DNA of 29,585 nucleotides, taken from Deltaproteobacteria bacterium CG07_land_8_20_14_0_80_60_11 (GTDB lineage: Bacteria > Desulfobacterota > Desulfobaccia > Desulfobaccales > 0-14-0-80-60-11). A program made the translations under genes and the position numbers. Below the pieces are notes generated by a model. That model was not told the origin of the DNA. It saw only the letters and a list, made by a program, of their open reading frames with translations, and did no database searches. Shown piece after piece: positions 20,320 to 27,086 of the stretch (position 1 is its first letter; every line of letters begins with the position of its first letter). The stretch is taken from NCBI GenBank assembly GCA_002779455.1, contig PEWM01000102.1:12685-42269 (forward strand), in the 5' to 3' direction.

Positions 20320-21618
20320 ATGAAACTTAGAAACCGCTGCCAACCTTTTGCTCTTATGGTCCAAGACGCCAGGGAACAAGGGTTTTACCCGTACTTCCGG
20401 CCCATAGATCGATCGTGGGGCACAGAAGTGGAGGTGTCGGGCCGGCGTCTGATTATGATTGGGTCCAACGACTACCTGGGATTTACTCACGATCCCAGAG
20501 TAATTGAGGCAACGGGCAAGGCTGCACGTCGGTGGGGTAGTGGACCCGGGGGATCCCGATTTTTGTGCGGCAACTTGACCTTGCATGAAACCCTGGAGGG
20601 TCGACTGGCCGCCTTTGTCGGCAAGAAAAAGGCGGTGGTCCATGCCACCGGGTTCACCACGAATCTGGGGGCCATTGCCTGTTTGCTGACCCCCCAGGAC
20701 ATCATCGTCTGTGACCGGGAAGGCCATGCCAGCATCTTTGAGGGGTGTCAGGCCTCACGCGCCCGGCTGATCCCGTTTGCTCACAACGATGCGGCCGCGG
20801 CGGCCCGCAAGTTGGCGGCCGCCCGCCAAAAAAACACCAACGGCTGCCTGTTCCTGGTCACCGAAGGCGTGTTCAGCATGTCCGGGGATCTGGCGCCCCT
20901 GGACGAACTGGTAGCGCTGAAGAAAAGTCATCCGGACCTGCTCGTCTATCTGGATGACGCCCATGGGTTGGGAGTGATGGGCCGCGGGGGACGGGGAACG
21001 GCCGATCATTTCGGACTCACGTCGGAAGTGGACTTTATTATGGGCACCTTCAGCAAGGCCCTGGCTTCCATCGGTGGATTCATCGCCGCCGATGATGAGG
21101 CGGTGCTGGAATATCTGCGGCACCATTCCAAACCGCTCATCTTCTCTGCGGCCCTGCCCGCCAGCAATACCGCCACCGTGTTGAAGTGCTTGGATATCCT
21201 GGATGAGGACCCAGACCGGGTTACCCGCCTCTGGGACATCACCCGCCATGTCCATGCCGGATACCGGGAGATCGGGCTCATCACCAAAAACTCCAAATCC
21301 CCCATCATCCCCATCTACATCGGGGCGGAAGAGAAAGCGGCTCTTTTTGCGCGTGACATGTTTGACCACGGCGTTTTTGCTTTGCCCGCCATCTATCCGG
21401 CAGTCCCTCGGGGGCAAGCGGTAATCCGCACCGCTTACATGAGCACCCACAAGGAGAGCCAGATCAGTTACGTCTTGGAAATTCTGGAAAAATTGGCCAA
21501 AAAACATCGTATCCGGGCTTGTGACTTCACGCAGCCGGACTCTTTCCTAGAGGAGAGCGGGTTTACCACGACCTATCCCGGTGCCAATGGCACTGCCGTC
21601 AACATGCTGGGCGACTGA
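20320..21618 (+). CDS. spt: PLP-dependent alpha-oxoamine synthase, serine palmitoyltransferase-like, 432 aa
   Basis: YPYFRPI..GTEV, GSNDYLG, GSRFLCG, HASI, EGVFSM.GD, DDAHG, MGTFSKALASIGG (PLP Lys at 21055-21057), IFSAALP. N-terminal YPYFRPI and GTFSK resemble Bacteroidetes-type SPT; a bCerS-like gene is in the same operon. BioF/Kbl not formally excluded. Confidence 0.7.
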   Translation: MKLRNRCQPFALMVQDAREQGFYPYFRPIDRSWGTEVEVSGRRLIMIGSNDYLGFTHDPRVIEATGKAARRWGSGPGGSRFLCGNLTLHETLEGRLAAFVGKKKAVVHATGFTTNLGAIACLLTPQDIIVCDREGHASIFEGCQASRARLIPFAHNDAAAAARKLAAARQKNTNGCLFLVTEGVFSMSGDLAPLDELVALKKSHPDLLVYLDDAHGLGVMGRGGRGTADHFGLTSEVDFIMGTFSKALASIGGFIAADDEAVLEYLRHHSKPLIFSAALPASNTATVLKCLDILDEDPDRVTRLWDITRHVHAGYREIGLITKNSKSPIIPIYIGAEEKAALFARDMFDHGVFALPAIYPAVPRGQAVIRTAYMSTHKESQISYVLEILEKLAKKHRIRACDFTQPDSFLEESGFTTTYPGANGTAVNMLGD

Positions 21619-21644
21619 TTGGGGATCACGGGGGAAAGCGCCTA

Positions 21645-22820
21645 ATGAGGCTTAACGACCTCATGCGGGTAAGTTTGCGTCAGGTGATGCGTCATCGCCG
21701 CCGCTATACGGGGGTGGTGTTGGCTATTGCTTTGGGCGTGGCCGGGTTCCTGAATATTGTCACCATGAGCCGGGAGGTCAAGAAAAACTTCAACGAGAAT
21801 CTTGACCTGATCGGCGGGGTTACCATCTTAAGGATCTATTTCGACAATCAGCGGTCTTACCGGCCCCAATGGTTCCGGGAGCAAACCCTCGCCGCCCTCA
21901 AGCGCCTCGACGGCGTCAAAGAATTAAGCCTCACCGCCGTAAAATATAGCCAAACCAATTTCCAAGGCCGGCACTTCGCCTTCACCACCATGGCGGTGGA
22001 TGAAGGTTTCTGGCAGGTCCGCAATTTTTGGCCCCTCACCGGGAAACTGTTCGGTCTTGACGCCGTCACCGGTCACAAACGGGAAGTCGTGCTTGGAGCC
22101 GAACTGGCCAAAAAGATTTTCGGCGATACCCATGTCAGAGGAAAAGACCTGGAGATCAACCAGGAGATTTATCTGGTGTCTGGGGTGTTGGGGGGGGTTA
22201 CCGATAGCGGGTTGGCGAACTCCGTGTTCCTGCCCCTTACCACCGCCGAGGACCGTTTCCCGGGCAGACTGCTGGCCGACCGTCTCTATCTGCGCTGCGC
22301 CACCTGGGATGATGTCACCGCCGTGGCGGCGGCAATTCCCGGGATCGTCAAATCTTGCCAATCGCCCGAGGAACTTCATGTCGAAGGCTCCTGGGAAGCC
22401 TTAAAACGGGTACAGCTGCTGGCTTGGTGGATCGAGTTTCTGATTTACCTGGCCACCAGCGCCACCTTTCTCTTGGGGGGTGTCGGCATCTGGAATGTGA
22501 TGATGGCCGCAGTCACCTCCCGAACCCGGGAAATCGGGTTGAAAAAGGCCATGGGCGCTGAAGATCGAGATATCTTGGCGCAATTTCTCTCCGAGGCTCT
22601 CTGTCTGAGCGTGGGCGCGGCCCTCTTGGGGGCCGGGCTGGGCCGCATCATGATGGAGTTTTTGAGTTACATCATCGAAAGCCGCCCGCCGGAAAATCTC
22701 TTTTTCTTCGGGGTAACCCTGGCCTTCCTGTTCGCAGTGGTGATTGGCGTGGGGGCTGGCCTCTATCCTTCAATCCGGGCCAGTCGCATGGAAGTTGTAA
22801 CCGCCATCCGCTATGAATAA
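21645..22820 (+). CDS. ABC transporter permease, MacB/FtsX family, 391 aa
   Basis: TM1, a large periplasmic domain, then GGVGIWNVM...V..RTREIGLKKAMGA...IL.QFL.EA and ASRMEVVTAIRYE. Confidence 0.92.
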   Translation: MRLNDLMRVSLRQVMRHRRRYTGVVLAIALGVAGFLNIVTMSREVKKNFNENLDLIGGVTILRIYFDNQRSYRPQWFREQTLAALKRLDGVKELSLTAVKYSQTNFQGRHFAFTTMAVDEGFWQVRNFWPLTGKLFGLDAVTGHKREVVLGAELAKKIFGDTHVRGKDLEINQEIYLVSGVLGGVTDSGLANSVFLPLTTAEDRFPGRLLADRLYLRCATWDDVTAVAAAIPGIVKSCQSPEELHVEGSWEALKRVQLLAWWIEFLIYLATSATFLLGGVGIWNVMMAAVTSRTREIGLKKAMGAEDRDILAQFLSEALCLSVGAALLGAGLGRIMMEFLSYIIESRPPENLFFFGVTLAFLFAVVIGVGAGLYPSIRASRMEVVTAIRYE

Positions 22821-25938: not shown

Positions 25939-25949
25939 GAGGTCCATTG

Positions 25950-27086
25950 ATGAAGTCAAGCGGGGAGATTACGGTGTCTCCCGTTCAGAATGACGCGTCT
26001 TTATGGGAATTTCTCCGCCTGCCGTGGCGCATCTATCAAGGGGACCCTTACTGGGTGCCCCCTATTCTCTCCCAACAGCGCCAGTTTCTGGATCCCCGGC
26101 GCGGGTCCTTCTTTGAGATCGGCGAGGCCCGGTATTTTTTGGCCTGCCAAGACGGCAGGCCGGTGGGGCGCCTGTCCGCCCACATCAATCGGCTCCATGA
26201 CACCGGTCACGGCCCGGAAACCGGCTTCTTCGGGTTCTTCGAGTGTATCCCGGACCGGGACGTGGCCGCGGCCCTGTTCGAGGCGGCGGCCGCCTGGCTG
26301 CGAGAGCGTGGCAAGACCCGCCTGGTCGGACCTTTGAATTTCGGCATCTACGATGAGATGGGGCTGCTGGTGGAGGGGTTTGACTCCATGCCGGTCATCT
26401 TCCAGACCCACAATCCGCCCTATTACCAGGACCTCCTGACCTCCCTGGGATTTGTCCAGGCCATGGATTGGCATGCCTACAAGATCACCAACCGGAAGGT
26501 GGACCTGGAGGCCATGCAGCGGCGCTATGACGAGATCATGCGCGGGCAGGACATCGAGATCGTGACCTACGACCCCAAAGAAGTCGACCGCCGCGCCGAC
26601 GAGGTCTTCGAGCTGTTCAATACGGCCTGGGCCCCCAACTGGGGCCACGTGCCCCTGACCCGGCGCCAGTTCGATGATATGTTTGAGACGGTCAAACCCT
26701 GCTTACGCCCGGGAATGGCTTTTGCTCTCCTGGACGACGACCGCGTGGCCGGTTTCGGCATCAGCCTGCCGGACCTCAATCCCCTCATCCGGAAGTTAAA
26801 CGGGCGTCTGACGCTCTGGGGCAAACTCCGCCTGCTCTATTGGGCCAAGTACCGGCCGGTCCGCAAGATCCGGGCCATGGTGGTGGGGGTCAGCCAGCCC
26901 TACCAGCGGCGGCGCCTACATCTGGCCATGGTCCTGCGCGCCTATATCCACCTGGTGAAGCACACTCCCTGGGATTTTTGCGATCTTTCCCTGGTCCCGG
27001 CCAACCTCAAGCACTGGATCAAGGTTATCCTGGCCCTGGGCGGCCAGCGCTACAAGGTCTTCCGCGTCTTTGAAAAACCTATCTGA
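25950..27086 (+). CDS. bcerS: GNAT-like YghO / bacterial ceramide synthase (bCerS)-like protein, ~378 aa
   Basis: FLRLPWRIY.GDPYWVPP, GRLSA.IN, GFFGFFEC, AAWLRERG...GPLNF, GLLVEGF, HNPPYY, FNTAW..NWG.VP, LPDLN, AMVVGV, RYKVFRVFEKPI. SD GAGGT. Confidence 0.75.
   Translation: MKSSGEITVSPVQNDASLWEFLRLPWRIYQGDPYWVPPILSQQRQFLDPRRGSFFEIGEARYFLACQDGRPVGRLSAHINRLHDTGHGPETGFFGFFECIPDRDVAAALFEAAAAWLRERGKTRLVGPLNFGIYDEMGLLVEGFDSMPVIFQTHNPPYYQDLLTSLGFVQAMDWHAYKITNRKVDLEAMQRRYDEIMRGQDIEIVTYDPKEVDRRADEVFELFNTAWAPNWGHVPLTRRQFDDMFETVKPCLRPGMAFALLDDDRVAGFGISLPDLNPLIRKLNGRLTLWGKLRLLYWAKYRPVRKIRAMVVGVSQPYQRRRLHLAMVLRAYIHLVKHTPWDFCDLSLVPANLKHWIKVILALGGQRYKVFRVFEKPI

Follow-up and report, generated by a model that had tools for sequence, protein, structure and literature searches.

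Gene content and organization of the locus

The stretch of DNA analyzed here (the window) covers 29,585 nucleotides of contig PEWM01000102.1 (C62 in our numbering) from assembly GCA_002779455.1, Deltaproteobacteria bacterium CG07_land_8_20_14_0_80_60_11. It carries a six-gene array at positions 20320 to 27086 in which a predicted serine palmitoyltransferase (Spt) and a putative N-acyltransferase of the YghO/bCerS superfamily enclose the parts of a predicted ATP-binding cassette (ABC) export pump. The host genome is a 2.42-Mb metagenome-assembled genome (MAG) in 285 contigs and is 73.5% complete. DNA nearly identical to the window is present in groundwater and aquifer metagenomes, and the host is an uncultured groundwater relative of sulfate-reducing bacteria in the order Desulfobaccales. 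A first-pass annotation of this DNA had inferred a Desulfobacterota-like lineage, in agreement with the closest relatives of the host, which are named Desulfobaccales. The same annotation described six closely spaced or overlapping genes on one strand, and the six open reading frames (ORFs) lie exactly where it had placed them, in the following order:

20320..21618 (+), Spt-clade alpha-oxoamine synthase (AOS), 432 aa; Pfam Aminotran_1_2, 2e-47
21645..22820 (+), MacB-type (type VII ABC) permease, 391 aa; Pfam MacB_PCD, 3e-22, and FtsX, 1e-19
22813..23520 (+), pump ABC ATPase, 235 aa; Pfam ABC_tran, 4e-35
23517..24998 (+), outer-membrane factor (TolC/OEP-like), 493 aa; Pfam OEP, 3.5e-24, in two stretches
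24970..25938 (+), periplasmic adaptor (HlyD/MFP type), 322 aa; Pfam HlyD_D23, 6e-16, and HlyD_3
25947..27086 (+), tandem-GNAT acyltransferase of the YghO/bCerS superfamily, distinct subfamily; assigned by YghO homology, AlphaFold fold, and tree

Successive ORFs are separated by a 26-nt gap, then by overlaps of 8 nt (permease and ATPase), 4 nt, and 29 nt, and finally by an 8-nt gap; the ATPase and outer-membrane factor genes are coupled, since their overlap has the form ATGA. The GNAT gene likely starts at the ATG at 25950, which gives a protein of 378 aa. This array is kept in about 40 related loci and is thus not a chance arrangement, and the six genes are confirmed to be real and tightly coupled. 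The unit is larger than six genes: a seventh gene overlaps the stop codon of the GNAT gene or lies right against it, and membrane protein genes are conserved upstream. An Rfam scan of the whole window gave no match.

Matches to Spt, the permease, or the GNAT protein are interrupted by an in-frame TGA or split in four related genomes (G006, C9:5150-6350; G015, C1:32158-38320; G042, C4:204087-206586; and G076, C20). These interruptions may reflect operon decay in some lineages or assembly error.

Co-inheritance of the predicted pump with Spt

The most distinctive feature of the locus is its four middle genes, which are predicted from their domain content to encode a complete MacB-type tripartite ABC pump. 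The first-pass annotation had treated the array as an spt plus bcerS ceramide unit; the two enzyme genes are as it described, and four of the six genes belong to the export pump instead. All four parts are contiguous and score above the Pfam gathering thresholds, and none reaches an NCBIfam equivalog cutoff. The best NCBIfam scores of the ATPase, all under cutoff, are 224 bits for LolD, 223 for MacB, and 174 for DevA. The N-terminus of the adaptor carries a hydrophobic anchor or signal-like segment. The outer-membrane factor is encoded by the least conserved gene of the array, with 34 to 73% identity among orthologs.

Co-occurrence was counted across 83 genomes of the order Desulfobaccales. 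An Spt ortholog is encoded in 68 of the 83 and a permease ortholog in 67, and the permease is missing from all 15 genomes that lack Spt. The sole mismatch is found in G008 (86% complete), where Spt is represented by its first 172 residues at a contig end. The pump directly follows Spt in every related locus that has sequence downstream of Spt, and it stays with Spt where the GNAT gene has another location (G029 and G030) or where a GNAT paralogue alone is present (G052). In outgroup Spt loci, the ceramide reductase gene (CerR) and bCerS stand beside Spt without a pump, which suggests that the pump was acquired once and then kept.

Placement of the synthase in the Spt clade

The best NCBIfam model for the synthase is NF047600, serine palmitoyltransferase of the CFB type (431.3 bits), followed by TIGR01825, a BioF/Kbl-related subfamily (352 bits), BioF (339), and Kbl (333); two further models, NF047599 (339 bits, cutoff 500) and NF047603 (262 bits, cutoff 670), are also under cutoff. 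Among solved structures, the top matches are Sphingobacterium SPT (3a2b/8guh, 1.5e-98), and those of BioF/Kbl, cysteate acyltransferase, HemA, and CqsA score well behind; for the last three enzymes the comparison is by Protein Data Bank scores only. Aligned to 3a2b, the synthase keeps the GTFSK motif with the lysine that binds pyridoxal phosphate (PLP), the DDAH and HAS motifs, and the C-terminal IR..M.TH arginine motif.

The phylogeny of the PLP enzyme that the first-pass annotation had proposed as a check, with grouping alongside BioF or Kbl as the outcome that would count against an Spt, was reconstructed with IQ-TREE from 35 sequences, and that grouping is not seen. The window synthase and nine Desulfobaccales orthologs form a clade (100/100) nested in a clade of 26 rows (96/93) that includes every CerR- or bCerS-adjacent Spt. 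Members of the latter are the Spt of the E. coli cluster and those of KSB1, Victivallales, Calditrichia, and Bacteriovoracaceae, while E. coli BioF, E. coli Kbl, and a second AOS of the host genome fall outside. The E. coli cluster Spt has been shown to be active (PMC9386255). The closest outgroup Spt proteins (42 to 48% identity) are encoded in the CerR-Spt-bCerS clusters of KSB1, Victivallales, Calditrichia, and Bacteriovoracaceae. Models, structures, and tree uphold the earlier description of the PLP enzyme as SPT-like, and serine palmitoyltransferase activity is predicted for it, with serine, alanine, or another amino acid as the possible substrate.

Two side observations concern this family. 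The pump-linked Spt proteins of Desulfobaccales end in a weakly conserved tail of about 30 to 35 residues (window 21514-21618, residues ∼399 to 432) that extends past the canonical C-terminal end and is lacking in the outgroup and E. coli Spt. A 40%-identical Spt-like gene was also found in locus L089 (DXJV01000075.1), labelled as a Candidatus Heimdallarchaeota MAG. It groups with the KSB1 Spt, and its contig, although assigned to an Asgard archaeon, is probably bacterial and placed in the wrong bin.

Two subfamilies of tandem-GNAT proteins

E. coli YghO and CerR, from an annotated sphingolipid gene cluster, served as stand-ins for the Caulobacter bCerS and CerR. The window GNAT protein is 30% identical to E. 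coli K-12 YghO over its full length (373 aligned columns, E 1e-54) and has the NWG motif in common with it, in line with its earlier assignment to the YghO/bCerS family. YghO itself is listed as a homologue of the Caulobacter N-acyltransferase CC_1154 (PMC9386255). The AlphaFold model of the window protein (predicted local distance difference test [pLDDT] score, 93.8) has a tandem-GNAT fold like those of 2wpw, 7q3a, MshD, and other acyl-CoA N-acyltransferases. No second member of the family was found in the host genome, at its 73.5% completeness.

The superfamily comprises 7,239 representative clusters at 50% identity, and two of its types occur in the Desulfobaccales. The operon type (at least 54% identical to the window protein) lies about 5.5 kb from Spt, while the paralogue type (30 to 38% identity) adjoins genuine CerR matches (E 1e-24 to 1e-33). 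An unrooted tree of 51 sequences splits the operon type from the bCerS-like proteins with support of 100/97 to 100/99. On the one side are the operon type and eight representatives; on the other are YghO, the Spt- or CerR-adjacent GNAT proteins of KSB1, Victivallales, and Calditrichaceae, the CerR-linked paralogues of Desulfobaccales, and an AOS-GNAT fusion. By this split, and with the tree being unrooted, the operon GNAT is placed in a distinct subfamily.

At least one gene of the GNAT family is present in all 68 Spt-bearing genomes, and in 15 of them it is the paralogue type alone, which suggests that both types serve the Spt product and are perhaps interchangeable. From the linkage to Spt, the co-occurrence in 68 of 68 genomes, and the tandem-GNAT fold, the window protein is predicted to N-acylate a sphingoid base or 3-ketosphinganine. 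Outer-membrane factor and adaptor genes also precede P0127, a less closely related GNAT (44% identity).

Variation in the GNAT position was seen in two relatives whose Spt proteins are 68 to 69% identical. In L060 (15273-17333), the GT-C gene described below comes immediately after the adaptor gene, and in L061 no recognized cluster gene follows the adaptor; neither has a GNAT gene in the operon. A protein of 784 aa, P0126, consists of two complete YghO-like units duplicated in tandem.

Ceramide reductase and a second lipid module

CerR is an epimerase-family protein of the NDUFA9-like type. A search of the host genome with E. coli CerR returned nothing at E ≤ 1e-3, and a Desulfobaccales CerR query found only partial matches of 29% identity (best E 5e-9), a result which, in a genome that is 73.5% complete, does not prove absence. 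No CerR ortholog was found in the congeners G001 (99% complete), G007, G009 (100%), and G010, all of them 99 to 100% complete, whose best matches to E. coli CerR have E values of 4e-8 or worse or are partial. Their epimerase-family matches to the Desulfobaccales CerR, at only 30 to 32% identity, were rejected as paralogues. The GNAT paralogue was not found in the host genome or in G001 and G009; in G007 and G010 it is present and CerR was not found. True CerR is encoded in about 21 of the 68 Spt-bearing genomes, where it adjoins the paralogue GNAT, away from the pump operon. The earlier conclusion that the organism makes ceramides is therefore only partly supported, because CerR or another reductase is needed and CerR was not found: Spt and a YghO-family GNAT are present, and this GNAT falls outside the bCerS-like clade.

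A second set of lipid genes was observed on the chromosome of G038 at 156990-164839 (L015:6991-14840), where the GNAT paralogue, a B12-binding radical S-adenosylmethionine (SAM) protein (BchE/HpnR-like), and a CerR-like reductase lie together with a YegS-family lipid kinase (TIGR00147, above cutoff) nearby. The same module is found in G044 (C22), G002 (C426), G034 (C8), G019 (C75), and G016 (C35). It looks like a canonical ceramide and ceramide-kinase module that would depend on the single Spt of the pump operon.

An envelope-glycan neighborhood

The array is flanked by genes related to glycosyltransferases (GTs) and to envelope polymer assembly:

27070 or 27136..28806 (+), GT-C-fold polytopic membrane glycosyltransferase-like protein, 556-578 aa; AlphaFold/Foldseek
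17143..19808 (+), upstream gene pair, its first member a Wzy_C-family protein (O-antigen ligase/polymerase-like); Pfam Wzy_C, 6e-11
18444..19808 (+), 454-aa polytopic membrane protein; a protein atlas leads to GT-C-like clusters only
13930..15138 (+), Zn-dependent medium-chain dehydrogenase/reductase; Pfam ADH_N and ADH_zinc_N
15135..16172 (+), 345-aa protein of unknown function; syntenic neighbor
16115..16939 (−), ArnC/PpgS-like family 2 glycosyltransferase (GT2); nearest to polyprenyl-phosphate sugar synthases

The GT-C-like protein has no Pfam or NCBIfam match. Its AlphaFold model is of moderate quality (pLDDT, 72), and all of the 33 best Foldseek matches are GT-C enzymes, among them STT3/PglB, DPY19, AftA, ArnT, and ALG9; the best 28 have E values of 1e-7 to 1e-3 and TM-scores of 0.37 to 0.53. 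Close to its N-terminus lies an invariant N-D-D motif. As modelled, the protein combines the multi-helix fold of a GT-C enzyme with an acidic motif in the predicted first periplasmic loop. Its gene comes after the GNAT gene in most related loci, and most Desulfobaccales loci keep the Wzy_C-like and 454-aa genes immediately upstream of spt. In about 30 loci the dehydrogenase, 345-aa protein, and GT2 genes retain synteny with the operon. The GT2 is nearest AglJ, PpgS, dolichyl-P hexose transferase, and ArnC, all under cutoff, and the Zn-dehydrogenase is a candidate ketoreductase other than CerR. Taken as an envelope-glycan setting, these surroundings suggest periplasmic glycosylation of the lipid.

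Several other observations were made in the window. Divergent cassettes at 10110-16939 are conserved upstream in about 30 loci and include a GT4-GT4-radical-SAM/SPASM set on the minus strand. A glycosyltransferase at 7626-8834 matches GT21, the ceramide glucosyltransferase family, in Pfam at 32.6 bits, above cutoff (HpnI, 77 bits, below cutoff), and could act on a lipid headgroup. The GC content drops to 0.53-0.56 at 6001-8000, compared with 0.62-0.70 in the flanks. An adenylate/guanylate cyclase-domain gene (28884-29585, minus strand) converges on the operon end, a position conserved in many related loci. The idea of a sphingolipid that replaces lipopolysaccharide was dropped; LpxC is encoded in G001, G009, and G038, though it was not found in the incomplete host genome.

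Probable promoter region and expression

The probable promoter region lies upstream of spt:

19809..20319, 511-nt intergenic region; AT-rich stretch and promoter-like match

The AT-rich stretch spans 20095-20290, and a TG-extended TTGAAA-N18-TAATAT match is located at 20163-20192; counts in promoter and terminator scans are at chance level, and this candidate promoter is one of placement only. A G-rich ribosome-binding site precedes the ATG at 20320. The 144-aa ORF at 19732-20166 matches no known family and is unlikely to be a gene.

RNA-library contigs from two studies (sediment and wetland) cover the operon at 90 to 99% identity and bridge the Spt/permease, adaptor/GNAT, and GNAT/GT-C junctions, with DNA carry-over possible. 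These contigs are weak support for co-expression, and a contig is no proof of a single transcript. Contig depth dips in the intergenic region (19940-20359) and in the outer-membrane factor gene; depth of this kind does not measure expression, and the sequences of divergent relatives are too dissimilar to pass the likeness threshold.

A proposed pathway and its alternatives

On balance, we consider it somewhat probable that the operon makes and exports an N-acyl lipid derived from a sphingoid base, that is, a ceramide-like and probably glycosylated envelope lipid. In the cytoplasm, the Spt-clade enzyme would condense serine (or alanine) with an acyl thioester to a 3-keto long-chain base, which the tandem-GNAT protein would then N-acylate, as has been proposed for Caulobacter bCerS acting before reduction. 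The keto group may be kept, or it may be reduced by an enzyme other than CerR, for which the syntenic Zn-dehydrogenase is a candidate. Once the lipid is at the periplasmic leaflet, the MacB-type pump would extract it and pass it to or through the outer membrane, a role suggested by the strict gene linkage, and the coupled GT-C enzyme may add a sugar on the periplasmic side, with the neighboring ArnC-like polyprenyl-phosphate sugar synthase as the putative supplier. Spt and bCerS are cytoplasmic (PMC11087976), and the routes of sphingolipid export differ among taxa and are largely unknown (PMC11087976; bioRxiv 10.64898/2026.04.12.717747). LptF2/G2 serve this export in Caulobacter, and an MmpL gene adjoins spt in Myxococcus (Klein laboratory). 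The proposed export fits these statements of the Klein laboratory on cytoplasmic synthesis and on taxon-varying export. It is further favored by the translational coupling of the overlapping genes and by P0207 (780 aa), in which an AOS domain and a YghO-like GNAT are naturally fused. That the locus adds a third independent solution to the Caulobacter LptB/F2/G2 and the suspected Myxococcus MmpL routes, with a new bCerS-like subfamily and a CerR-independent, possibly 3-oxo or glycosylated ceramide-type lipid, is a tentative proposal to which we give a little less than an even chance.

Several points weigh against this explanation. The pathway steps are all predicted from homology and linkage. 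The synthase scores under the NCBIfam equivalog cutoff even with its best model (NF047600, 431.3 bits versus 640). The related genomes are not phylogenetically independent, and the co-occurrence counts overstate the support. With CerR not found, a true reduced ceramide in the host is unproven. The window GNAT lies outside the clade of CerR-linked bCerS-like proteins, so that its acceptor could differ, and around the subfamily members P0128 and P0130 neither an Spt gene nor a pump was seen. Peptides, siderophores, and drugs are also known cargo of MacB-type pumps.

Three other explanations were weighed. The operon may belong to a canonical ceramide pathway in which Spt and bCerS lead to dihydroceramide, the CerR gene is unassembled or its place is taken by an unrelated reductase, and the pump is accessory. 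The clade placement of Spt, the YghO homology, the 73.5% completeness of the host genome, the true CerR of about 21 of the 68 Spt-bearing relatives, and the Zn-dehydrogenase and epimerase-family genes near the operon all fit this possibility. We nevertheless regard it as unlikely, given that the 99 to 100% complete genomes G001, G007, G009, and G010 have no CerR ortholog, that CerR, where present, adjoins the other GNAT paralogue and not the pump operon, and that the operon GNAT belongs to a separate clade. A quite improbable alternative is that the AOS and GNAT enzymes make a secreted amino-ketone or N-acyl amine (a signal, surfactant, or antibiotic-like compound) that is expelled by the pump, with no membrane lipid involved. 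CAI-1-type signals are another product of AOS enzymes (the synthase matches CqsA at 1e-31), peptides and siderophores are established cargo of such pumps, and some members of the GNAT subfamily are unlinked to Spt; yet the AOS falls inside the CerR/bCerS-linked Spt clade with scores far above those of the CqsA type, the operon is fixed in a neighborhood of envelope-glycan genes (Wzy_C, GT-C, ArnC-like GT2, and GT4), and the system is vertically conserved across the whole family rather than patchy. The pump could also be a general MacAB-TolC-type efflux system for drugs or toxins whose position between two lipid genes is incidental and which has no substrate in common with them, as its generic NCBIfam matches (MacB, LolD, and DarD, all under cutoff) would allow. 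This appears very remote in view of the start and stop codons that overlap with those of its neighbors, the near-perfect co-occurrence and adjacency with Spt across the order even where the GNAT gene has moved, and the outgroup loci from which a single acquisition and later retention were deduced.

Comparison with known systems and significance

The reading of the locus as a lipid synthesis and export operon can be set beside the Spt-bCerS-CerR pathway of Caulobacter crescentus and of E. coli B (yghO-aasR-cerR-acpR-spt with lptF2/lptG2). Both have an Spt-clade synthase and a GNAT of the YghO/bCerS superfamily, and those loci share with the window embedded transporter genes and a predicted cytoplasmic condensation followed by N-acylation (PMC11087976, PMC9386255). 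They differ in that no CerR, AcpR, or AasR was found here, the window GNAT belongs to a separate subfamily, and the window transporter is a predicted complete MacB-type pump, whereas that of the Caulobacter and E. coli type is LptF2/LptG2 borrowing LptB. Unlike the Spt-bCerS-CerR clusters, the window also has GT-C and Wzy_C-like genes attached. The pairing of a GT2 similar to polyprenyl-phosphate sugar synthases with one or more GT-C transferases follows the logic of ArnC/ArnT in lipid A modification; the likeness is one of fold and family only, with scores far under the ArnC/ArnT cutoffs.

The closest mechanistic precedent for the predicted pump is DevBCA-HgdD of cyanobacteria, which likewise has a separate ATPase, a MacB_PCD/FtsX permease, an adaptor, and a TolC-like factor. 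That system exports heterocyst glycolipid to the cell surface and is a precedent for a MacB-type glycolipid pump. Orthology is not shown by the scores (DevA, 174 bits versus a cutoff of 296; DevB, 33 versus 129), and the cargo and lineage of DevBCA-HgdD are unlike those of the window.

Sphingolipids had been thought poorly documented in Desulfobacterota, a view that the published record contradicts: the passages of Ding et al. 2024 that treat this phylum report Spt-like genes and candidate sphingolipids (PMC11334938). Taxonomic novelty carries little weight, since such genes are already published. As described in those passages, the Black Sea anaerobic MAGs hold the same broad class of Spt-like genes, in a wider clade B around known Spt, and as in the window bCerS and CerR are often not beside Spt; the main-text passages on Desulfobacterota and bCerS mention neither a pump beside Spt nor two GNAT subfamilies (PMC11334938). 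A literature search found no paper that links Spt to a MacB-type pump. Four elements are new: the joint inheritance of pump and Spt throughout the order, the lack of CerR in most genomes with Spt, the split into two GNAT subfamilies, and the module of CerR, GNAT paralogue, and lipid kinase.

A 2026 preprint from the Klein laboratory regards the transport of sphingolipids to the Gram-negative outer membrane as an open question and predicts a mechanism that varies among taxa (bioRxiv 10.64898/2026.04.12.717747). The pump operon is a genetically testable candidate for such export, its pump passed on together with Spt throughout an entire family of uncultured anaerobes common in groundwater, sediments, and wetlands. 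As the YghO/bCerS superfamily splits into CerR-linked and pump-linked types, counting any bCerS homologue in metagenomes as evidence of ceramides may overcall the pathway. The lipids of Desulfobaccales may not be ordinary ceramides, which matters for the reading of environmental lipid biomarkers.

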